Part shown: positions 2,533 to 64,000 of the stretch, piece after piece | How positions within the stretch are numbered: position 1 is the first letter of the stretch | How the letters are laid out: each line of letters starts with the position of its first letter | From: Minisyncoccota bacterium | GTDB taxonomy: Bacteria; Patescibacteriota; Minisyncoccia; Phycocordibacterales; BOKC01 | Length of the DNA: 64,000 nt | NCBI GenBank assembly: GCA_030583745.1 | Contig: CP129473.1 | Location: 362,887-426,886, forward strand | Direction: 5' to 3' | Position numbers and translations under genes: made by a program | The notes under the pieces: model-generated | Told to the model about the DNA's origin: nothing | Seen by the model: the letters and a program-made list of their open reading frames with translations, nothing else | Database searches by the model: none

Positions 2533-5500
2533 TTATAACTCTTCTTCTAAATCTAGCTCTGTTTCTGGTTCACCCTCAACAATCTCATTTTCCGGGCCCG
2601 CCCCAACACTAACTTTCTCTTCGTTTTCTTCACTACCGGTCTCTTCTTTTGATCCAATCTCATCCGCTTTGAAATCACCTTTGTTATCCGAGCCAACTTG
2701 ATCATCCGGATAATCAACACTACCACCACCACTTTTGAAAATTTGACATTCGCCCGGTGCTGAATTTACAACTCCACTGTTTATAGACAAACAATACGGC
2801 TCGCCGGTTATTGTATCGAATAAAGTTATACCTGCCGGATTTTCTCGGTTGCCGACCGTCAACTTTTCGGCAATCAAATTTTTGAAATAGGCAAATCCAT
2901 CCTGGATTTTAACACCAAGCATTTCAAAGTTGGTAAGAATATAATCAAAACCAAAACCGCCGGCATTTCCACCCTTTACAAAAGCTTCCAGATCAGAAAT
3001 TCTTTTTTCCAAATTCAAATCACCCTCACCAAAATAAAAGGTGTTGTTATTTATAAAAGTCATAATCTTACCGACTTCCCCATTAGAAGAAGGTGTGAAA
3101 TCTTCAAGCGCAACACCAACAACTCGGCCGGGTTTTGTGGCTTTCATCCCAATCCCAAGTCTTGATGACGAGGTGATGTAATCTCCGGCTTTTATCGGGC
3201 CGTTTTCGTCTGAAACCTTAACCGGCACCCGACCCATAACCCCAACCGGTATGTCATTTGTCTCTTCAATCCGGTAAGCTGTCGGGCTTTTGGATAGCGT
3301 ACCAATAATACCCGGTTTTGTTGAATAAACGCCCACTAAATTTGCCTGATAAACACCGTAAGATTTTTCAACCTTGCCGGGTTCCAGCTTTGAAGCCACA
3401 ACAATATCCCCCGGCTCGTATTCGGTCTTTAAACCAACAACAGTAAAAGCTTCGGCGTAGTCGGCCGGATTTGTAAGCGAGCCGTCAATTGCCACGTCGC
3501 CGTCGGAATCAACAGTAAATTTACGATTTATGACATCTCCGGTTGTCGTCGCAATTGTAAAAAGATAGGTATTGGCATTTGGCTGATTTGAGACAATTGT
3601 AAAATCTGCATCTGGAGTAGAAGTACCAACTCCAACTCGGACTACGTTGCCAGTTGCGCTTGTTTCAAAAACAATGTTACCAGCTGTTGCCGTACCAATA
3701 TGAGTAGTGCCGTTATCCAAAACTGAAAACAAAGTGGTTGAAGCATTATTAACCAACTCAAAAATTCTATTCGTGCCAGTACCGACCCCCCAGACCGTGA
3801 GCTTGCTGTAAGGTGTTGTCGTGCCAATTCCGACATTACCACCAAAATATGATTTGGTTGTACCACCAGTATAAATAGCAAAACGATTATTACCCCGAAC
3901 AATCTCGTCTATTCTTAATCCATAAACATTTGTCATAGTTCCAGATCCGGTAGTTGAAGGACTTCTAACTCTTATTCCAGAATAATCGGTAATTGCACCG
4001 GAACCACCCAAATACCAAATTGATTCTTCTATCTGCAGTCCAATATATTCAGTAATTGAAGCGTTATTGACTGTTAAACTACCTCTTTCACTCCAAACCG
4101 AAAGTCCTGTTGCCAAAGATATAGTTCCAAGTGCAGTAGAACCAAAATGTAATCCAACTCGTCCACCGGACAGACCACCAGGACCGGTTGTTAAAGTTAA
4201 GGCACCAGAACCGCTGTGCTTAGCAATTGACTGAAAAGCCATATTGGAACCAGAGTTTGAGCTAGAGCCAGTAAAATCTACTGCTGTTAGAAGGCCTCGC
4301 CTTTCTCCACTTGTGCCAGTTATTCCTTTAATTGTAACCAAGCGGTCAGTGTCGTTGGTGGGGCTGACGGGAAGATTTGTGGTGGCTCCGCCAAAATGAG
4401 AGTAGGTATTCATATTCCTTGAAACCTCAAGACCTCCCTCAGCTGTTAATTTGCCACTGACATAAGTCAGATCGGCAGATTCTGAAAGAATGCCGTCTGT
4501 GCTAACAAAAGGAACTCGATTGCTGGTAAAGGGGGTTCTAAAATTTCCGGTAAACCGAAGGTTTGTGAAAGTTGAAGTGGCATTACTAGAAGTGGCTGTA
4601 AAATATTCAGCAACCGCTTGTCCGACAACAGAAAGACGAGCGTAAGGGGAGGACGTGCCGATGCCAAAATTTATGCCATCAAAAACAAAACCGTCGGTAT
4701 CCGTCAAAGCATTACCCGAAGAATTGGTGTGAATAATCCTGTTTGCGGTAAAAGATGATTGTGTGTCTGTTAAACCAAGAAAAGTTGATACCCCACTTCC
4801 ACCACCAACACACACGCCATTTACCGCAAAACATCCGGTACGAATATCTATGCCGGAGCCAAAAGTTGAAGTCGCGGTAGTAGAAATATTTATCGTGTCA
4901 GGGCCAGTGTTGCCTAAAGAAAAAATTGTTCCCGGAGTAGTTGTGCCAATACCAATGTTCCCCAAGAAATATCCAGTTCCATCTTCAAGAAAAGCAGCCA
5001 AAGTAGTTGAAGAATTGTTGGTTAACTCAAAAAGCCGGCTTGCACCAGTGCCCGAACCCCAAACTGAAAATCTGGAGTAAGGAGACGAGGTGCCGACTCC
5101 AACATTACCATTAGAAAGTAGCGCCAAAACAGAAGCCGAGCTTTGCCCGATAAATTCAGCTATTTTACCGGCGCCACTTTGGGTAATTCTTAAAAATGTT
5201 GAAGCGGTGGAGGTTGAGTTTTCGGCATCGGAACGCAAAAATTGTGATGAGTTTAAGCCCGACAATTTGCCAGCTTCAAAAGCTGAGGGCACTGTGCCCA
5301 AAATTTTTCTCGGGGACATTTCATCATCGCAACCAGAAAGTCCAGACGTTCCACAAATCTCAACACCAAGGTAAAGAGTTTGGTTGAAGTTGACCGTTGA
5401 AAGCGGAGTGGAACTGCCAAGCATGACACTAAACAATCCATCGGTTACAGTTATCCGATCACCAGAATCTATACGGATTTCTTCCCAGATATTTGTAGTG

Positions 5501-5706
5501 GTAGCGCTAGTCGCAGTAGTATATAAACGAAATTTCATTATATAGTTACCATCAGGTACCGCCAGATTATTAGTGTCTGTCAATTTGCCTTGATAGTTTA
5601 TCTGCGAATTAAAATCAGCATAAGAGACAAAAGGCAGCAAGAAAAAAAATCCTGAAAAAACCAGAAAAGTATAAATCCGAATTTTTTTTCTAAGCAATAT
5701 TCTCAT
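2533..5706 (-). CDS. Large (1057 aa) secreted tail-fibre-like repeat protein with a Peptidase_G2 / intramolecular-chaperone-like C-terminal region and an acidic tail.
   Basis: Signal peptide. At least 5 repeats of the n(V/I)G(I/V)GT(S/T)(S/T)P....(L/F)(S/T)V.G motif. C-terminal ...PADYAEAFTVVGLKTEYEPGD...GVYSTKPGIIG resembles the ADYAEYFEW block of phi29-gp12-type G2 autoprocessing domains. Confidence 0.55.
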   Translation of the reverse strand: MRILLRKKIRIYTFLVFSGFFFLLPFVSYADFNSQINYQGKLTDTNNLAVPDGNYIMKFRLYTTATSATTTNIWEEIRIDSGDRITVTDGLFSVMLGSSTPLSTVNFNQTLYLGVEICGTSGLSGCDDEMSPRKILGTVPSAFEAGKLSGLNSSQFLRSDAENSTSTASTFLRITQSGAGKIAEFIGQSSASVLALLSNGNVGVGTSSPYSRFSVWGSGTGASRLFELTNNSSTTLAAFLEDGTGYFLGNIGIGTTTPGTIFSLGNTGPDTINISTTATSTFGSGIDIRTGCFAVNGVCVGGGSGVSTFLGLTDTQSSFTANRIIHTNSSGNALTDTDGFVFDGINFGIGTSSPYARLSVVGQAVAEYFTATSSNATSTFTNLRFTGNFRTPFTSNRVPFVSTDGILSESADLTYVSGKLTAEGGLEVSRNMNTYSHFGGATTNLPVSPTNDTDRLVTIKGITGTSGERRGLLTAVDFTGSSSNSGSNMAFQSIAKHSGSGALTLTTGPGGLSGGRVGLHFGSTALGTISLATGLSVWSERGSLTVNNASITEYIGLQIEESIWYLGGSGAITDYSGIRVRSPSTTGSGTMTNVYGLRIDEIVRGNNRFAIYTGGTTKSYFGGNVGIGTTTPYSKLTVWGVGTGTNRIFELVNNASTTLFSVLDNGTTHIGTATAGNIVFETSATGNVVRVGVGTSTPDADFTIVSNQPNANTYLFTIATTTGDVINRKFTVDSDGDVAIDGSLTNPADYAEAFTVVGLKTEYEPGDIVVASKLEPGKVEKSYGVYQANLVGVYSTKPGIIGTLSKSPTAYRIEETNDIPVGVMGRVPVKVSDENGPIKAGDYITSSSRLGIGMKATKPGRVVGVALEDFTPSSNGEVGKIMTFINNNTFYFGEGDLNLEKRISDLEAFVKGGNAGGFGFDYILTNFEMLGVKIQDGFAYFKNLIAEKLTVGNRENPAGITLFDTITGEPYCLSINSGVVNSAPGECQIFKSGGGSVDYPDDQVGSDNKGDFKADEIGSKEETGSEENEEKVSVGAGPENEIVEGEPETELDLEEEL

Positions 5707-7249
5707 AATTTATTTTAAAAATCCTCGGTCGAAATTTCCAAGCAACAAACAAAAGTATAAAAAGTAAAGATAGCCAGAACGTAATAGGTAGCCAAGGAAA
5801 ATTCGGAAACGCGATTGGTGGAAAAGGAAGAATTGATTTCAAAATTCCGTTTATCTTTCTTAGACCGCGATTTTTATGGTCAAGAACGGCGACATGAAGA
5901 CCAAAAGTCCCCTCTTCACCAAGTGGCGCAATGCTTGCCTCATAAGCGCTTCTATTTTCGTTCACCCGAAGCAAAAAACTAAAAACCAAAGATGGGTCAA
6001 CAGGGTGAGTTAGAGTAACAGTAAGAGTCTTTAGAACCTCCGGTACTTTTTCGTAAGGTAGGGAAACTTTCAAAGCTCTATCGCCATTTACAACAACGAT
6101 ATTACCTCTTTCAAGCTTGGCGATTTCGTCTCCTTGAATAAATTTGAAGTCTCCGAGCGTCAATCCCAAAAACATCGAATCAACACTCGAACGTGGCAAA
6201 TCAATCACTCCGGCAAACGGCTCCGGTGGAATTTCTCCCGGGATCAAAAGCTTACCTCTGACCAAAGCACCAGAAGAATAACGACCGCTTTTGTCTCTAA
6301 CAAAAACCGAATAAAAATAGTCTGTGCGTTTTTCAACTTTTGAATCAACAAATCTCTCCCCTCGGCCTTCATAAACTAAATTTCCGTCAAAAGGATCTTT
6401 AGGGAAAAATTTTGGCGAACGAATAATCCTGATATTCTCAAAATTAACTGAAGGATTTTTCCAAGTCAAAATTATCTTTTCCTCATCCGCAAGAGCTCTT
6501 AAGTTAGAAACATTGAAAGGAAATTCGGGAAAAGAAATAGTCTTAAACTGCTGATTGTCCAAAATAATTTTCCGACCGAGCGCATCAACAATCTCTAATC
6601 GGAAAAAATACAAGACGCCGGGGTCAAGGTCCAAAACAGTAATTTGATGATTCGTCTTAAAAACAGAAGAGGCCAGAGAGCCAATTTCATAATCCGGAGT
6701 TTTACCCCAAAATAATACCGTTTTTGAGGGGATATTAGTTTCCAAATTTATGACTGCTTGATATAAATCCGGCTCTACGGAGAAATTTAAGACTTTCAAA
6801 AAAACATATTGACCTGTTTGACCGCGAGCTTGTTCTTCTTCCTCCTCTTCATCCAAAGGAAAAGTGGTGGCTGAAGCAGGATCAGATAACGGGCTGTCAG
6901 CCCCGGAGGTGTCAAAGGCCGAAACTTTGTAAGTATACAAAGTGTTTGGAGAAAGACCGGTGTCGCTATAAGAAGTTCCAGAAGTGGTATCAATCTCTAC
7001 GTCATCCCTGAAAATTTTATAACCATTTACAGGCAGATCACCCTCAACCGCCGCATCCCAAGTCAAATTTATCCCTGAAGTGGAAACAGCAATAGCCGAA
7101 AGATTTTGTGGCGCTTCGGGTGGATTTTCTACAGTAATTATCTGACTGACCTTGAACTGACTTTCAGATTGTGCAGAAACAATTAAAGCTAAGAAAGCAA
7201 AGCTGGCTATTAAAATCTTTATTTGGAATGTAAGAAAATTTAATTTCAT
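5690..7249 (-). CDS. Fibronectin type III domain protein with signal peptide and C-terminal TM anchor.
   Basis: FN3-like block NLSAIAVSTSGINLTWDAA...YTYKVSAFDTSG. N-terminal signal peptide. C-terminal hydrophobic helix WLPITFWLSLLFILLFVAW. 17-nt overlap with upstream gene. Confidence 0.55.
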   Translation of the reverse strand: MKLNFLTFQIKILIASFAFLALIVSAQSESQFKVSQIITVENPPEAPQNLSAIAVSTSGINLTWDAAVEGDLPVNGYKIFRDDVEIDTTSGTSYSDTGLSPNTLYTYKVSAFDTSGADSPLSDPASATTFPLDEEEEEEQARGQTGQYVFLKVLNFSVEPDLYQAVINLETNIPSKTVLFWGKTPDYEIGSLASSVFKTNHQITVLDLDPGVLYFFRLEIVDALGRKIILDNQQFKTISFPEFPFNVSNLRALADEEKIILTWKNPSVNFENIRIIRSPKFFPKDPFDGNLVYEGRGERFVDSKVEKRTDYFYSVFVRDKSGRYSSGALVRGKLLIPGEIPPEPFAGVIDLPRSSVDSMFLGLTLGDFKFIQGDEIAKLERGNIVVVNGDRALKVSLPYEKVPEVLKTLTVTLTHPVDPSLVFSFLLRVNENRSAYEASIAPLGEEGTFGLHVAVLDHKNRGLRKINGILKSILPFPPIAFPNFPWLPITFWLSLLFILLFVAWKFRPRIFKINYENIA

Positions 7250-7258
7250 ATATTCAAT

Positions 7259-8116
7259 TTAAAGAGTGACGGCGGTTAAGGTTGTGGTCGCTACGTAAGT
7301 ATCCGGCAAAAGAATCGGGTTGTGATTTGCAGAGACTATTGCCCTGAAACGCAGAGTCGAAGTCGCGCCGGAGATCGGTGTTCTTGATGTCGTACTAATT
7401 ATCGTCCTTGGTGTGGTGGTCGCCGAAATCCAGCAGTTATCGTCGGTTTCAGTTGAGCCGGTGTTGCAGGCATTCGAACCATTGTTCCTAAATGCGGCCA
7501 CAATTTCACCGGTTGTTGAGGCATTGATGGTATAAGCAAACGCCGAAGAATTCGCTGGTGCCGAATTAAAATTAAAATCCGGCACCTCCGGAGTAGCGGT
7601 GTTTAGATGAAAAATGGTACCAGCATTTTCATTTCCAATCATGCCGTCATCAGAATCGGTTTTTATGGTGACAGAGAAACCAGCGGCATTATCGGTCTTT
7701 ACAATAAACTGAGCACCACCATTTGAAGTCCCCCCAGTCAATCCGCCCAACGCCGGAGACAAAGTGATATCGTCAACAGAAGTAATTGATATAAACACCC
7801 CCTGCATTTGCTGATATCCGGCTTTGAGTCTATAAGACGCGCTTTCAGAAATACCGGTTGCCAATTCACCAATCGTACTTTCTTCAAAATAATTTGCACT
7901 TTGAGACCTAAGACCGCCGATATTCAGACTATCACTCTGCACTCTATAGCTATTACTCTCCATCACAAATGCACTAACTTCAATATAAAAAAACACGGCA
8001 AGCAACAAGCTAAAGAAAAGTGTTGTTATTGTTGCGTTTTTCTTTTTTTTTTGGTTTCTTTGAAAAGACATATTCCACAGCTTGTCCACAAAATTAAATC
8101 TTTTGAAACTTGTCAA
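7259..8116 (-). CDS. Secreted Thr/Ser-rich beta-rich protein, paralog of 9286..10053 (unknown family).
   Basis: Signal peptide. Shared blocks LSPxLGGLTGGTSNGGxQF(I/V)V and GSxACNTGS...CWISAT (conserved Cys pair) with the paralog. Confidence 0.5.
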   Translation of the reverse strand: MTSFKRFNFVDKLWNMSFQRNQKKKKNATITTLFFSLLLAVFFYIEVSAFVMESNSYRVQSDSLNIGGLRSQSANYFEESTIGELATGISESASYRLKAGYQQMQGVFISITSVDDITLSPALGGLTGGTSNGGAQFIVKTDNAAGFSVTIKTDSDDGMIGNENAGTIFHLNTATPEVPDFNFNSAPANSSAFAYTINASTTGEIVAAFRNNGSNACNTGSTETDDNCWISATTTPRTIISTTSRTPISGATSTLRFRAIVSANHNPILLPDTYVATTTLTAVTL

Positions 8117-8217
8117 GTCTTAAACCATTTGCTAGCTTTAGTACAACAAAAGACCTCGTAGTTAGAGTTTCAATTGGTCTTGGGACCCGCTCGGGTCTTT
8201 TGTTTTTTTGTAATATG

Positions 8218-59606: not shown

Positions 59607-60929
59607 TTAAAGCTGGTTAACCAGATCCACAAATTTCTCTCCTCGGTCAAACTCATTTTTGAATTGACCAAATGATGTAAACGCCGGGCTAAAAAGAATG
59701 ATGTCTCCCGAATTAGCAACCTTAAAAGACCTTTCTAGAGATTCCTTAAGTTCCCTAACCCTTTCTAAACCCAGCCCGTCAATTTCTGTCGGCAAACGAT
59801 CACTGCCACTACCCGGGACAACAAATACTTTCTTACAAAACCTTGGTAAATCATCCAAAAGCCCTGTAAGGTTTAGTCCTTTATCATTGCCCCCGAAGAT
59901 CAAAACAATATTTTTTTTCTCTTCATTTCCGAGGGCTTCAAGAGCGGCAATCGTAGCTTCTGGAGTAGTAGATGTGGTGTCATTATATATCTTTATTCCG
60001 TTAATTTCTTTCATAAACTCTAACCGCCCCGGAACGCCTGAAAAAGACTCCAAAGCCGATTTTACAATCGCTCGGTCAATATTTAGAGACTCCACGGTCA
60101 ACATGGCCAGAGTAGCATTATATCTGTTGTGCTCACCTAGAATTTTTAAATTCCAGTCTGACGGCAAATCCTTGCTATCTCCTATTAAAACCCGAGCTTT
60201 TGATTCATAATTGTCTTTTATTAGACCGGCGCATTGACTACCAAGAATTAAAAAATCATTTTCTTTTTGGTTAGAAAAAATATACGACTTATCTTTCAAA
60301 TAAGCGTTTAGGTCACCTTTGTAATAATTTAGGTGGTCCGGAAAAAATGTTATAAAAACCGCGATGTGCGGAGAGATTTTTTCTTCACCAAACCCTTGGA
60401 GTTGCCAAGAATCTAATTCTAAAACCGCAATTTCGTCCGGAGTACTCTTGGGTAGATGTGCTAAAGTTGAAACACCTTTGACATTGCCTCCCAAAAAAAC
60501 TTTTTTACCAGCGGCTTTTAATATTTCATAAATCATGGCGGTTACGGTCGACTTTCCTCTTGTACCGGTTACGCCGATAATTGTGCCCGGAAAAAATTTG
60601 GCAAAAAGCGAGGTGCTCATCTTCACCGGAATGTTGTTTTTTTCAGCTTCTGCAATAAAAGGCGAGTCAAATGGCACTCCGGCCGCCTTTATAATCAAAT
60701 CTCTACTTCTGAAGTCATCAAGTTTATGACCGCCCAAAGAATACGTTATGTCATATTCTTTAAGTTGTTCCAAAGAAGAAACAAGATCTTCTTTGGTTTT
60801 CAAATCGGTAACGGTTAAAACCGCTCCATGTTCAGCCAAAAATTTAATATCACCGACTCCTCTGCCAAGAATCCCCAGTCCAATCACCGTAATTTTTTTA
60901 CCTTTAAAATATTCTTTATAATTCATCAT
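59607..60929 (-). CDS. murD: UDP-N-acetylmuramoylalanine--D-glutamate ligase.
   Basis: KKITVIGLG...GVTGTRGKST and Mur ligase C-domain. Confidence 0.8.
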   Translation of the reverse strand: MMNYKEYFKGKKITVIGLGILGRGVGDIKFLAEHGAVLTVTDLKTKEDLVSSLEQLKEYDITYSLGGHKLDDFRSRDLIIKAAGVPFDSPFIAEAEKNNIPVKMSTSLFAKFFPGTIIGVTGTRGKSTVTAMIYEILKAAGKKVFLGGNVKGVSTLAHLPKSTPDEIAVLELDSWQLQGFGEEKISPHIAVFITFFPDHLNYYKGDLNAYLKDKSYIFSNQKENDFLILGSQCAGLIKDNYESKARVLIGDSKDLPSDWNLKILGEHNRYNATLAMLTVESLNIDRAIVKSALESFSGVPGRLEFMKEINGIKIYNDTTSTTPEATIAALEALGNEEKKNIVLIFGGNDKGLNLTGLLDDLPRFCKKVFVVPGSGSDRLPTEIDGLGLERVRELKESLERSFKVANSGDIILFSPAFTSFGQFKNEFDRGEKFVDLVNQL

Positions 60930-60943
60930 CTAACTAATATAAG

Positions 60944-60962
60944 GACATCGCAAGTCCTTATT
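60944..60962. repeat. REP-like 19-nt hairpin aaggacatcgcaagtcctt (orientation A), just 3' of the transposase gene.
   Basis: Stem aaggac/gtcctt with 7-nt loop. Related copies at 61476, 61697, 61748. Confidence 0.7.
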
Positions 60963-61644
60963 ATTCTAAATCTAAAGCAACCTCTTGAAAATTTTCCACA
61001 CTTATATCTTTAAGCCAGTTTCGTATACCTTTTCTATAGCCATCAGTTCCGCCGAAAAAATCTAACATGAAATCACGTTGGGTAACAGATGGAAAATTTT
61101 TCTCTCCAAGATAGTCTAAATGACTCGACCAACGATAAGAACCTAGAAAATTTATTGCCTGCCTATAATCTTTCAACTTCCCCTCTCTCCACTCCGGCGC
61201 GGTTAAATCAAGAGGGTTTAAATGAATGTAATAAGGTAAGTGAATGAAATGCGCGTCGTTTTCTACTAAAACTCTTTTATATCTTGATTCAAATAAAGCC
61301 CCCTTTCTCTCATATTTTTCATTGAAATATTTAGCATATCCCATATTTACTTTCTTCATAAATTTGGAAATACCGTAATCTATTTTGGATGAAATCAATA
61401 AATGATAATGGTTGGGCATCAAACAGAAAGCGTTAAGATTTACCAACAGTTTTCGCTTCTGCCGAGTTTTTTCAATATAAGGACTTGCGATGTCCTTAAT
61501 TTTGGAGAAACGATAAAGAGAGTTGTTAACCCAATTCTGATCGTTAAACTCAAATAAATCGTGAATAAAACGGAGATAATCCTTGTTATCAAGAAAAATA
61601 TTTCTCTTGTCTACCCCTCTATTTAGTACGTGGTAAAACTCCAT
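60961..61644 (-). CDS. IS200/IS605-type HuH Y1 transposase / REP-associated tyrosine transposase (RAYT)-like.
   Basis: HuH motif PNHYHLL. C-terminal Tyr region RYKRVLVENDAHFIHLPYYIHLNPL. Confidence 0.7.
   Translation of the reverse strand: MEFYHVLNRGVDKRNIFLDNKDYLRFIHDLFEFNDQNWVNNSLYRFSKIKDIASPYIEKTRQKRKLLVNLNAFCLMPNHYHLLISSKIDYGISKFMKKVNMGYAKYFNEKYERKGALFESRYKRVLVENDAHFIHLPYYIHLNPLDLTAPEWREGKLKDYRQAINFLGSYRWSSHLDYLGEKNFPSVTQRDFMLDFFGGTDGYRKGIRNWLKDISVENFQEVALDLE
61476..61494. repeat. REP-like hairpin aaggacttgcgatgtcctt (orientation B), located inside the transposase CDS (encodes KDIASPY).
   Basis: Exact reverse complement of the 60944 copy. Confidence 0.7.
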
Positions 61645-61696
61645 ATTCTATTGCTCAATTCACAATTTACCTATTATACCATAATTAATAATATTA

Positions 61697-61715
61697 AGGA
61701 CTTGCGATGTCCTTA
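61697..61715. repeat. REP-like hairpin aaggacttgcgatgtcctt (orientation B), 5' of the transposase gene.
   Basis: Exact copy; a variant hairpin cggacgtctgatgtccg follows at ~61748..61764. Confidence 0.7.
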
Positions 61716-61786
61716 TATTTATATTTAGAGAAAGGTCTAATTTTCGGACGTCTGATGTCCGATGTTTATTAAATTTTCGAAAAAGT

Positions 61787-61856
61787 CGGGCTGCCGAGAA
61801 TCGAACCCGGACTTCACGCACCCGAAGCGTGTGGACTACCACTATCCTACAGCCCG
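61787..61856 (-). tRNA. tRNA-Pro (anticodon CGG).
   Basis: Manual cloverleaf. C1:G72 acceptor cgggctg/cagcccg. Anticodon stem cacgc/gcgtg with loop ttCGGgt. T-arm GGTTCGATTC. CCA not encoded. Confidence 0.75.
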
Positions 61857-62053: not shown

Positions 62054-62110
62054 TGCGCGTGCCAGGGATCGAACCTGGGACCTTTCGAGTATCAGTCGAA
62101 TGCTCTACCT
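62054..62110 (-). pseudogene. Partial copy (~55 nt, 3' portion: T-arm, anticodon arm, part of D-arm) of tRNA-Ile(GAU).
   Basis: Identical to the 3' part of the 62155..62227 tRNA, diverging at the D-stem. Confidence 0.55.
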
Positions 62111-62154
62111 TCACCCGCCCATCAATTTTTAAATACTTTATTTACCGTCCAAAG

Positions 62155-62227
62155 TGCGCGTGCCAGGGATCGAACCTGGGACCTTTCGAGTATCAGTCGA
62201 ATGCTCTACCAACTGAGCTACACGCGC
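62155..62227 (-). tRNA. tRNA-Ile (anticodon GAU).
   Basis: gcgcgtg-ta-gctc-agttggta-gagc-a-ttcga-ctGATac-tcgaa-aggtc-ccagg-ttcgatc-cctgg-cacgcgc-a; perfect cloverleaf. Confidence 0.8.
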
Positions 62228-62284
62228 ACTCTAGAAATTAAAAATATATTTATTGATGTCAAAATTGATAGGCGGGCAAGCCTG

Positions 62285-62393
62285 AGCTACACGCGCGCAA
62301 TATTTGCTTTTCAAGATTCTAACACCCTGCGTACGTTTAATCTCTGGGCCTACCAAGACAGCTACACGCGCGCAATATTTGCTTTTCAAGATT
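62285..62393. repeat. Two 34-bp direct repeats (agctacacgcgcgcaatatttgcttttcaagatt) 75 bp apart; their first 12 nt equal the 5' end of tRNA-Ile (reverse complement gcgcgtgtagct).
   Basis: Seen in sequence at ~62285..62318 and ~62360..62393. Confidence 0.6.
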
Positions 62394-62469
62394 TCTACCA
62401 CGCGAGACAAACCTAAACCCAAAATACCCATAAAAATTAACAAAAAAAACTCTCAAAAACAAGAGAGCC

Positions 62470-62497
62470 CCGCGCGCAAGCGCGCGGGGCTCATATA
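62470..62497 (-). terminator. Strong GC hairpin (gagccccgcgcgc-aa-gcgcgcggggctc) followed on the minus strand by a T-run; terminator of 62503..62742.
   Basis: Perfect 13-bp palindrome. Confidence 0.6.
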
Positions 62498-63399: not shown

Positions 63400-63547
63400 G
63401 TTCAATTTGAAATATTCCACGAGCAGCTTCCGCTACCCGTGCCTTGTTACGACTTACTCCCTGTTATTGAGCTTACCGTGATGCCACAAAAGTGACGCTT
63501 CGGGTATTCCCAACTCCCTTGAGTTGACGGGCGGTATTTGATGTGTT
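63400..63547 (-). rRNA. Partial 16S rRNA, 3'-terminal ~150 nt (E. coli ~1390-1540 region), continuing upstream beyond an intervening sequence.
   Basis: Reverse complement reads ACCGCCCGTCAACTCAAGGGAGTTGGG...GGGAGTAAGTCGTAACAAGGCACGGGTAGCGGAAGCTGCTCGTGGAAUAUUUCAAAUU. Universal 1400-region and GUAACAAGG signatures; h45 with GGAA loop. Boundaries approximate. Confidence 0.6.
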
Positions 63548-64000
63548 ATAATGTCACCATTATAATTCTCTTCAACACGGGGCAAGCGGTTTTCCCGCAC
63601 CCTCGCGTTTTCCAAAGGTTGCTTATCCGATTTTTTTATCGAATTCACTTACCTTGCCATGATAAGTTTTAGCTTTCTTCCCTAATGAGCGCAAATCATT
63701 GCGTAGGGAAACAATTTTGTTAAATCCATCATCAGATAAATGTTCTTTGGCGCAAACCATAAGAACTATTTTTCTAAAAATAAGATAGGATTTTTTCTTT
63801 TTCGCCTGTAATGGATACTTATCAAGAAACGGGAATAAATACTCTTTCAGGTCCCAGATGCTGGTAATTTTATACTTGGCATGCGGATACCATCCATATC
63901 GCTCATAAGAGCAATCATAAATTCTCCCGATTCCGATAGTCACAAGTATGCGTTCCAGGATTTCTTGATCATCTTTCCGCAATTCTATTTCAAATTCCGG
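63548..64000 (-). mobile_element. Intervening sequence (probable group I intron) inserted near the 16S 1390s/1400 region, carrying a homing-endonuclease ORF; extends beyond window end.
   Basis: Sequence between the recognisable 16S exon and window end is non-rRNA-like and encodes a LAGLIDADG-fold protein in the rRNA orientation. Confidence 0.5.
63623..64000 (-). CDS. LAGLIDADG-family homing endonuclease (I-CreI-like, C-terminal part; N-terminus with the LAGLIDADG motif lies outside the window).
   Basis: ...IGRIYDCSYERYGWYPHAKYKITSIWDLKEYLFPFLDKYPLQAKKKKSYLIFRKIVLMV... aligns in pattern with the I-CreI segment VGYVRDRGSVSDYILSEIKPLHNFLTQLQPFLKLKQKQANLVLKII. Frame open to position 64000. Confidence 0.55.
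   Translation of the reverse strand, partial: PEFEIELRKDDQEILERILVTIGIGRIYDCSYERYGWYPHAKYKITSIWDLKEYLFPFLDKYPLQAKKKKSYLIFRKIVLMVCAKEHLSDDGFNKIVSLRNDLRSLGKKAKTYHGKVSEFDKKIG

Follow-up and report, generated by a model that had tools for sequence, protein, structure and literature searches.

A probable REPtron-like unit in Patescibacteria: an HUH/Y1 nuclease gene that shares a hairpin with its own flanks

Repetitive extragenic palindromic sequences (REPs) and the REP-associated tyrosine transposases (RAYTs) are the standard example of a transposase that has been domesticated and coexists with a population of mini-elements of its own. Domesticated RAYTs are said, in the work of Bertels and colleagues, to be present as a single copy per genome and to be inherited vertically. 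The Patescibacteria, or Candidate Phyla Radiation (CPR), hold a large share of bacterial diversity in tiny genomes that are assumed to be repeat-poor. Here we analyze a stretch of 64,000 nucleotides (nt) from a Minisyncoccota bacterium of this group (contig CP129473.1, positions 362,887 to 426,886; hereafter the window, with positions counted from its first letter), which contains a gene for an HUH/Y1 nuclease accompanied by three copies of a 19-nt hairpin, one of them inside its coding sequence (CDS). We consider it probable that the locus is a REPtron-like unit of Patescibacteria, that is, a gene for a RAYT-class HUH/Y1 nuclease-transferase of single-stranded DNA (ssDNA) together with its cognate palindromic elements.

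The closest described systems are distinguished by short protein motifs. A tyrosine motif of the form Y---NP is the signature of class 2, the RAYT side, and Y---Q that of the TnpA of the insertion sequence (IS) IS200 (PMC6006769). Within class 2, the combination of NH[YF]H, Y[IV]HLNP and 'SS' marks subclass 2.1 (PMC6006769, Table 1), for which no REP-like sequences have been reported and whose members often have a DnaA-C-like helix-turn-helix (HTH) tail and terminal inverted repeats (TIRs) of the form GGGG[AT][CG]A[CG] (PMC6006769). For subclass 2.4, found in Cyanobacteria and Bacteroidetes, in-frame insertion of REPs into the enzyme's own gene, tnpA(REP), has been reported (Quentin et al., 2018, PMC6006769). 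REPs inside genes and the Rickettsia palindromic elements (RPEs) are likewise already known (Di Nocera et al., 2013, PMC3733652). An earlier reading of the window, which we call the original prediction, held REP/RAYT systems to be essentially undescribed outside Proteobacteria; this was mistaken, as they have already been described in Cyanobacteria, Bacteroidetes and other phyla.

Hairpins inside and beside the HUH/Y1 gene

The 19-mer AAGGACATCGCAAGTCCTT is present exactly as the original prediction described it, 3' of the gene, 5' of it and within its frame, where it encodes KDIASPY (Table 1). All three exact copies in the window are at this one gene; 0.01 matches are expected by chance, three were reached in 0 of 100 shuffles, and a scan allowing up to three mismatches found no further match in the rest of the 64 kb. 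The upstream and internal copies have the loop ATCGCAA on the gene strand. The downstream 19-mer begins 1 nt past the Y1 stop codon, and its other end is 11 nt upstream of murD; its hairpin is identical in a mosaic strain, L101, discussed below. A variant hairpin that had been placed further 5' is also there (CGGACGTCTGATGTCCG, at 61746-61762). The copies at the locus have a perfect stem of 7-8 bp and a loop of 7 nt, and all four hairpins are stable as ssDNA (dG -4.8 to -5.4 kcal/mol; z -3.1 to -6.7 against shuffles).

This arrangement is a property of the gene family. We fetched 80 metagenomic loci with Y1 homologs, on contigs of limited length, and compared the 76 that are non-redundant, counting an exact match of at least 12 nt between a CDS segment and the 150 nt on either side of the same gene. 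Gene nt 130-190 (codons ~46-58) match their own flanks in 62 of the 76 loci, other 36-nt CDS windows do so in 0-2, and the same segment set against the flanks of other loci matches in 8.7% of comparisons. What CDS and flanks share is palindromic, and its perfect stem measures 5 to 22 bp. Its core varies by locus (for example TAAGGACATCGCAAGTCCTTA, AAGGACGTCAGACGTCCTT, ACGTCATCGCAAGACGT, CTGTCGCTGTCGGACAGCGACAG, TATTGACTTACGAAGTCAATA and CACGCAGTCAGAGTGCGTG), while outer feet of approximately CAAT[A/C]TA ... TA[G/T]ATTG are conserved over core types in internal and external copies.

Covariation is strong among 50 aligned internal hairpins. Paired cells make up 82.5% against 62.6% in shuffles, double-sided stem changes number 110 against 31 expected, and the covariation score of 0.475 against 0.117 was reached by 0 of 500 shuffles. 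The inner five pairs had served as a selection criterion; the outer pairs had not, yet they covary too. One-sided changes of the G-U type are almost nil in the stems, which argues that the constraint is on a DNA palindrome. Moreover, imperfect hairpin variants are common to all three copies of a locus (such as TAAGGACATCGCAAGACCATA in L030), which points to copying rather than independent selection.

These observations bear on the idea that the palindromes are cis-regulatory, that is, operators, terminators, mRNA-stability elements or autoregulatory Y1 sites that are under selection and not mobile. The location of the downstream copy in the gap between Y1 and murD, the position of the upstream copy in the promoter or 5' region, and terminator-like pattern matches at upstream hairpins are what such sites would show, and REPs of other bacteria do act as RNA stabilizers and terminators (PMC3733652). 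We nevertheless regard this explanation as very unlikely. The strictly Watson-Crick covariation with hardly any G-U intermediates fits a DNA palindrome and not a structure of RNA only, the imperfect variants shared by all copies of a locus speak for copying, and the same elements occur far from Y1 genes and in frame in unrelated housekeeping genes. Orientation is variable, and the distance from hairpin to start codon ranges from 9 to ~130 nt across loci; there is therefore no fixed operator geometry, and we rejected a fixed promoter or operator relationship. A consensus promoter scan between the upstream hairpin and the Y1 start codon found none. A known RNA family was rejected as the identity of the hairpins, given that an Rfam search with E values up to 1 matched only tRNAs and rRNA and nothing at the hairpins.

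The internal copy occupies a particular place in the protein. In an AlphaFold (AF2) model built from 46 sequences (predicted local distance difference test, pLDDT, 83; predicted template modeling score, pTM, 0.82), the hairpin-encoded residues, at 49-55, fall in a low-confidence loop (residues 40-60, pLDDT <50). This loop is part of an insertion of ~27 amino acids (aa), placed between helix A and the HUH strand, which non-CPR relatives do not have. These relatives (22-32% identity by tblastn) are of the subclass 2.1 type, some of them on plasmids, and they have no repeat shared between CDS and flank. In L005, a homolog of 42% identity, this loop contains the identical 19-mer, there inverted and read in another frame. 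A TAG in the right arm or foot is found in 33 of 111 external copies versus 2 of 56 internal ones, which use TAT. At several loci all external copies have one sequence, from which the internal copy departs by a single base that changes a codon. On this model, the hairpin-encoded peptide is a passenger in a predicted disordered, CPR-specific loop.

The Y1 protein and its alleles

The protein belongs to the Y1 superfamily by its match to Pfam Y1_Tnp (PF01797; 4.5e-11, 43.4 bits against a cut-off of 23). Its top NCBIfam model is REP_Tyr_transpos (NF047646), and the IS200 TnpA model (NF033573) gives 15.9 bits, below the cut-off of 55. In an alignment of 46 homologs, H79, H81, Y139 and N143 are invariant and P144 nearly so. 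The Y motif, YIHLNP, has the Y---NP form of class-2 TnpAY1 proteins, unlike the Y---Q of IS200, and NHYH, YIHLNP and YRWSS together are the motifs of subclass 2.1, also called TIRYT. Pfam finds no second domain, hence no DnaA-C-like HTH, and in the alignment the CPR protein stops before the C-terminal extensions of its relatives from Sporomusa, Legionella and Rhodospirillum. The top Foldseek match in the PDB is 4ER8 (4er8_A), the E. coli RAYT-REP complex, followed by the TnpA proteins of IS608 and ISDra2; 2XM3 and 2VJV are among the fold matches. A PDB search with the single sequence found no match, and a profile search matched ISDra2 TnpA alone (E 0.002); the classification therefore rests on motifs and fold. 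Profile and fold support the view, already taken in the original prediction, that this HUH/Y1 protein is nearer to RAYTs than to IS200 TnpA. The family is large, with more than 4000 protein clusters, and all named top matches are from Patescibacteria; the best non-self matches of the window protein have 63-81% identity.

Two metagenomic contigs, from strains nearly identical to that of the window, carry different versions of the locus. In strain L022, murD is 98.3% identical to the window at the nt level and the tRNA side 99.3%, and the Y1 gene at the same site has 75% nt and 69% aa identity. Its hairpin type, GGACGTCAGACGTCC, is found upstream, downstream and, in degenerate form, internally. 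The high identity on the tRNA side stops inside the upstream hairpin that the two strains have in common: the variant hairpin of the window is the upstream hairpin of the alternative allele in L022 and the left end of the variable cassette. Strain L101, whose murD matches that of the window at 98.0%, has a mosaic allele. The part that runs from the Y motif (~61213) to the downstream type-1 hairpin agrees with the window at ~99%. Over the first ~430 nt the identity is ~75%, and this portion is accompanied by a third hairpin type, CAATATAAGGGTGTCGTAAACCCTTATATTG, at the upstream and the internal position alike. These two hairpins therefore move together with the N-terminal catalytic module. The Y1 gene sits at the same murD-upstream site in all three strains, the L022 and L101 alleles being 75-83% identical to that of the window, and six more strains with the window allele show no change in gene or hairpins beyond a single loop base of the variant hairpin. 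Alleles are thus exchanged between strains at this locus, and the exchange is bounded by hairpins. The original prediction had raised a possible difference in presence between close relatives; the gene is indeed present in L022 and L101 as diverged alleles, and no empty site was found.

Allele exchange invites comparison with an autonomous IS200-like element, in which the flanking hairpins would be the ends of a hairpin-gene-hairpin unit that transposes as a whole, the internal hairpin a third, accessory end, and solo hairpins footprints or mini-derivatives. A cassette exchanged between near-identical strains with its left breakpoint at a hairpin is compatible with such an element. So is the genomic context, which differs at nearly every locus (124 flanking open reading frames, ORFs, fall into 92 clusters), and the presence at L081 of two Y1 copies with identical CDS, 2.7 kb apart. 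Flanks are also co-oriented in most loci with asymmetric loops, as in IS200/IS605. The orientation is nevertheless variable: among asymmetric cores, 21 upstream copies are antisense and 11 sense, and downstream copies divide 13:11. The inverted flanks that the original prediction took as a signature are seen in the window and at L021 and do not amount to a rule of the family.

Other features also count against an IS200-like element, which we regard as unlikely. The Y1 gene is single in the window and on nearly all contigs, with no swarm of near-identical copies across genomes. Three strains hold the gene at the same site, with diverged alleles and one mosaic made by homologous recombination, and the Y motif (PMC6006769) and the IS200 hidden Markov model score both lie on the other side. 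No tnpB is present at the window locus or L081, the loci whose ORFs were inspected. The L081 duplicate was considered and rejected as proof of transposition: its unit is bracketed by an unrelated, GC-rich repeat of 40 nt, so recombination can explain the duplication. That repeat, CCCGACACCACCCCGCCCGCCGCGCCCAGCGGAGTCATAGT, of ~40 nt, occurs six times at L081, brackets both Y1 copies and is mostly intergenic, one copy overlapping the 3' end of an ORF.

tRNA genes adjoin the Y1 gene in only a few loci, and tRNA-targeted integration was rejected as a rule on this ground. Two further observations are worth recording. The contigs of L043 and L046 are 99.8% identical and differ by an indel of ~370 nt, 1.4 kb downstream of the Y1 gene (L043 7038-7073 vs L046 5124-5530). 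At L096, a dense cluster of palindromes of 27-48 nt built on GGATTTCGGGAACC and ATCTATTGGTTTCGGAAACCAATAGAT surrounds the Y1 homolog (3200-6800), whose own internal hairpin is weak.

Dispersed copies and a proposed mechanism

The 19-mer is not confined to the window, as the original prediction required of a REP-like element. A search of a species-representative genome collection for exact AAGGACATCGCAAGTCCTT found 22 copies in 20 loci of ~15 other metagenome-assembled genomes (MAGs), all Patescibacteria (Paceibacterota/Parcubacteria, Saccharibacteria, Liptonbacteria, Wolfebacteria and Sungiibacteriota). We estimate ~4 chance matches from the size of the collection and the complexity of the 19-mer, and these would fall anywhere in the tree. 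Some dispersed copies are intergenic, others form back-to-back inverted doublets that resemble REPINs, and others lie in frame inside genes for UvrD/PcrA, LepA, CysRS, a carbamoyltransferase, a cysteine desulfurase and a methyltransferase. PDB alignments of LepA, UvrD and the carbamoyltransferase returned distant relatives only. Around the Y1 homologs, copies of a locus's own hairpin type are ~80-fold denser within 150 nt of the gene than farther off; 18 distant copies were counted in 243 kb (~0.07/kb), a third of them inside long open frames, and the copy number is therefore low. The REP-like nature claimed for the element accordingly stands with regard to dispersal and inverted doublets, and fails with regard to copy number and to the copies that are in genes.

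One site in a cysteine desulfurase gene shows different cores between identical feet among lineages. It exists as GGCAATCT-AAGGACATCGCAAGTCCTT-AGATTGCC and as GGCAATCT-ATGGACGTCGGACGTCCAT-AGATTGCC, and further versions are a decayed ACGAC type and a short AT-rich one. The cysteine desulfurases of Patescibacteria (alignment A3, homologs of L016:2906-4126) vary in length from 377 to 493 aa and have several in-frame variable inserts, among them PPAGG, as from a GC-rich palindrome, at two sites, and inserts of 40-100 aa. Repeats inserted in frame may be common among CPR proteins.

The scatter of copies also suggests a coincidental hot spot, with some other machinery mobilizing the palindromes and the Y1 gene merely sitting in a receptive region. 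Only 2 of the 20 exact 19-mer loci have a Y1 homolog nearby, most having none within a few kb, and core type is weakly tied to protein similarity, as discussed below. The density beside and inside Y1 genes and the match of CDS to flanks in most loci are hard to reconcile with this account, as is the joint movement of hairpins and catalytic module in the L101 mosaic. To our knowledge, HUH/Y1 enzymes are the one class known to process such hairpins (4ER8, IS608). We give the hot spot hardly any credence. A link to defense or to phages was rejected as well: PADLOC found no defense-system match, PHROGs gave a weak transposase match alone (0.018), viral contigs contain no exact copy of the 19-mer, and phage records hold one weak Y1 homolog.

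We therefore return to the REPtron-like unit, the reading that we favor. A gene flanked by cognate palindromes that are also present elsewhere is what we find in the window, in 62 of the 76 loci and, for the dispersed copies, in other MAGs. Anatomy, co-variation, dispersal, allele exchange and fold are matters of observation; binding, cleavage, a preference for cis and core replacement are proposed by analogy with TnpA(REP) and IS200/IS605 TnpA. By that analogy, the Y1 enzyme would bind the hairpin when it is extruded in ssDNA, probably recognizing feet and structure, and would cut and rejoin at the feet, with the result that hairpin cores could be copied or replaced at sites that bear feet. 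Acting mostly in cis, it might let copies accumulate within ~100 nt of its own gene. The CPR-specific disordered surface loop before the HUH motif may be the only intragenic place that tolerates a hairpin; it would for that reason always display the current hairpin type, recoded just enough against stop codons. Further copies would end up between genes and, within housekeeping genes, at loops that are permissive. Gene and hairpins could form a cassette that strains exchange through recombination, and ongoing copying may keep enzyme and mini-elements alike.

Several observations do not sit easily with this proposal. Representative MAGs hold 1-4 exact copies of the 19-mer, far from the high copy number by which REPs are recognized, and the window has no copies of its own type beyond the gene locus. 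The feet differ from the canonical REP tag GT[AG]G (or CGTC). Fourteen of the 76 loci lack a match between CDS and flanks, the internal copy being degenerate in some (for example L014 and L022). Neither the all-against-all comparison of loci nor the cysteine desulfurase site yielded a clean pair of filled and empty sites, and the peptide that the hairpin encodes in LepA and UvrD takes the place of residues, with no clear addition. Core similarity and protein similarity correlate weakly (Spearman 0.24, reached by 2 of 2000 permutations), and identical cores accompany proteins of 62-73% identity; since core type tracks the protein so weakly, the protein may not read the core. The score against the NCBIfam RAYT model, 40.6 bits, is below its cut-off of 80, and identity to 4ER8, the kind of homology from which we infer binding and cleavage, is 12%.

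A more far-reaching possibility is that the intragenic hairpin is a working part, with the Y1 enzyme overwriting cores in its own gene and at foot-bearing sites genome-wide. We find this idea doubtful, and so too its content, a templated replacement of cores between fixed feet that would extend to essential CDSs. If true, short palindromes that code for peptides would evolve in concert across the genome, the alleles of the enzyme itself would diversify rapidly within a species, module by module, and Patescibacteria would have a self-referential ssDNA editing system rather than a classical transposon.

Regardless, a family of this size with a hairpin at three defined places offers an unusually clean comparative data set. 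Its many natural variants (different cores on the same feet, mosaics, both orientations inside the CDS) bear on how Y1 enzymes recognize their sites, on copying versus replacement in place, and on how palindromes enter essential genes. The annotation of these Y1 genes as 'transposase' is likely misleading, and assembly breaks and the 'variable loops' of CPR proteins may be driven by repeats.

The neighborhood of the locus (Table 1) contains other repeats. A truncated duplicate of tRNA-Ile(GAT), with 56 nt identical to the full gene, lies in the region of 62054-62118, 62154-62227 and 62206-62393; it scores 41 bits against the Rfam tRNA model, is not called by ARAGORN and is also present in strain L022. 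The same region has a tRNA 3'-end fragment, AGCTACACGCGC, three times and a perfect direct repeat of 34 nt (62285-62318 / 62360-62393). Duplicate and fragments could be scars of repeated integration at tRNA-Ile. Four independent assemblies of one strain (L103, L105, L106 and L107) all end inside this duplicated region, ~440 nt upstream of the Y1 gene (~62083 in the window), and these breaks appear to be caused by the tRNA-Ile repeat. At 62465-62492 is a GC-rich perfect palindrome, GAGCCCCGCGCG-CAAG-CGCGCGGGGCTC, in an otherwise AT-rich genome; it is kept in L022 (4333-4360) and may belong to a different family of palindromic elements. Finally, the 3' part of a 16S rRNA gene lies at 63405-64000 on the minus strand (weak Rfam small-subunit rRNA match, 37 bits). 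Within it, ORF 63623-63982 has a LAGLIDADG endonuclease domain (Pfam, 2.3e-7) and probably encodes the homing endonuclease of an intron in the rRNA gene.

Table 1. Coordinates of features at the HUH/Y1 locus of the window, and of the repeat at locus L081
Feature	Position	Strand	Remarks
19-mer AAGGACATCGCAAGTCCTT, exact	60941-60959	plus	window scan
19-mer AAGGACATCGCAAGTCCTT, exact	61479-61497	minus	window scan
19-mer AAGGACATCGCAAGTCCTT, exact	61696-61714	minus	window scan
HUH/Y1 (RAYT-like) nuclease gene	60961-61644	minus	ORF, 227 aa; Pfam Y1_Tnp
Upstream hairpin	61695..61715	minus	gene strand TAAGGAC-ATCGCAA-GTCCTTA; 51 nt ahead of start codon
Intragenic hairpin	61478..61498	minus	codons 49-55, encodes KDIASPY; oriented as upstream copy
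Downstream hairpin	60939..60961	plus	8-bp stem; inverted vs upstream and internal copies
Second, related hairpin	61744..61762	minus	CGGACATCAGACGTCCG on gene strand; adjoins tRNA-Pro
HUH motif N-H-Y-H	codons 78-81, 61402-61413	minus	Y1 gene
Y motif Y-I-H-L-N-P	codons 139-144, 61213-61230	minus	Y1 gene
'WSS' tail motif (YRWSS)	aa 172-174	minus	Y1 gene
murD	59607..60929	minus	conserved right flank; 98% nt identity to L022 and L101
tRNA-Pro(CGG)	61785..61856	minus	conserved left flank; 99.3% identity to L022 down to 61746
L081 repeat CCCGACACCACCCCGCCCGCCGCGCCCAGCGGAGTCATAGT	3053-3090, 3868-3917, 5353-5393, 5878-5918, 6690-6733, 8116-8152		repeat copies

Comparison with known systems

The E. coli-type TnpA(REP)/RAYT REPtron (subclass 2.2; 4ER8) shares with the CPR system the HUH/Y1 fold, being its best structural match, the class-2 Y motif Y---NP, and a single gene per stretch with cognate hairpins that flank it and occur elsewhere, also as inverted doublets. 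In both, hairpin and gene co-vary. The CPR protein differs in its low identity to the E. coli enzyme, its score below the NCBIfam cut-off, and its greater length, with a C-terminal tail and an extra loop. Its elements have feet of CAAT[A/C]TA / TA[G/T]ATTG instead of GT[AG]G, are low in copy number and variable in flank orientation, and include a copy inside the CDS in most members, all in a patescibacterial host.

The CPR protein shares several features with subclass 2.1 / TIRYT, which corresponds to group 1 of Bertels: NH[YF]H, RYK, Y[IV]HLNP, a proximal 'SS' tail (YRWSS) and a length close to 238 aa, as well as non-CPR tblastn relatives of this type. Unlike that subclass, the CPR family is without the distal HTH, is flanked by hairpins and not by the TIRs described there, and accommodates its hairpin in the added segment of ~27 aa that follows helix A and precedes the HUH strand. 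With subclass 2.4 it shares a cognate palindrome in the enzyme's own frame, which leaves the gene undisrupted and lies in a peripheral, variable region. The CPR copy, however, precedes the HUH motif and keeps to a single position, in a loop specific to the family. The motifs of subclass 2.4 are NH[IFV]H and YIxNNP, as against NHYH and YIHLNP, and its REPs have a GT[AG]G double foot.

The TnpA proteins of IS200/IS605 (IS608, ISDra2) have the same fold and, we expect, the same catalytic chemistry, with subterminal hairpins and the PDB profile match to ISDra2 TnpA as further likenesses. Their Y---Q motif and length of ~150 aa are not those of the CPR protein, and their multi-copy, near-identical elements with fixed co-oriented ends and frequent tnpB are not seen here. 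RPEs and intragenic REPs (PMC3733652) resemble the CPR elements as short in-frame palindromes in housekeeping genes for repair and translation of a reduced-genome lineage. The CPR elements, in contrast, encode only ~7-11 aa, share feet while their cores differ by lineage at the same site, and are associated with a Y1 gene that has a copy of its own.

Full-text literature searches in an incomplete library found no paper that links Patescibacteria with REP/RAYT, and nothing on the features listed next. Set against the systems above, five features appear to be new: a REP/RAYT-type system in Patescibacteria; palindromes associated with a subclass-2.1-like protein, in a subclass reported without REPs; feet other than GTAG; within-species allele exchange; and a family-wide, positionally fixed intragenic copy before the HUH motif that co-varies with the flanks.

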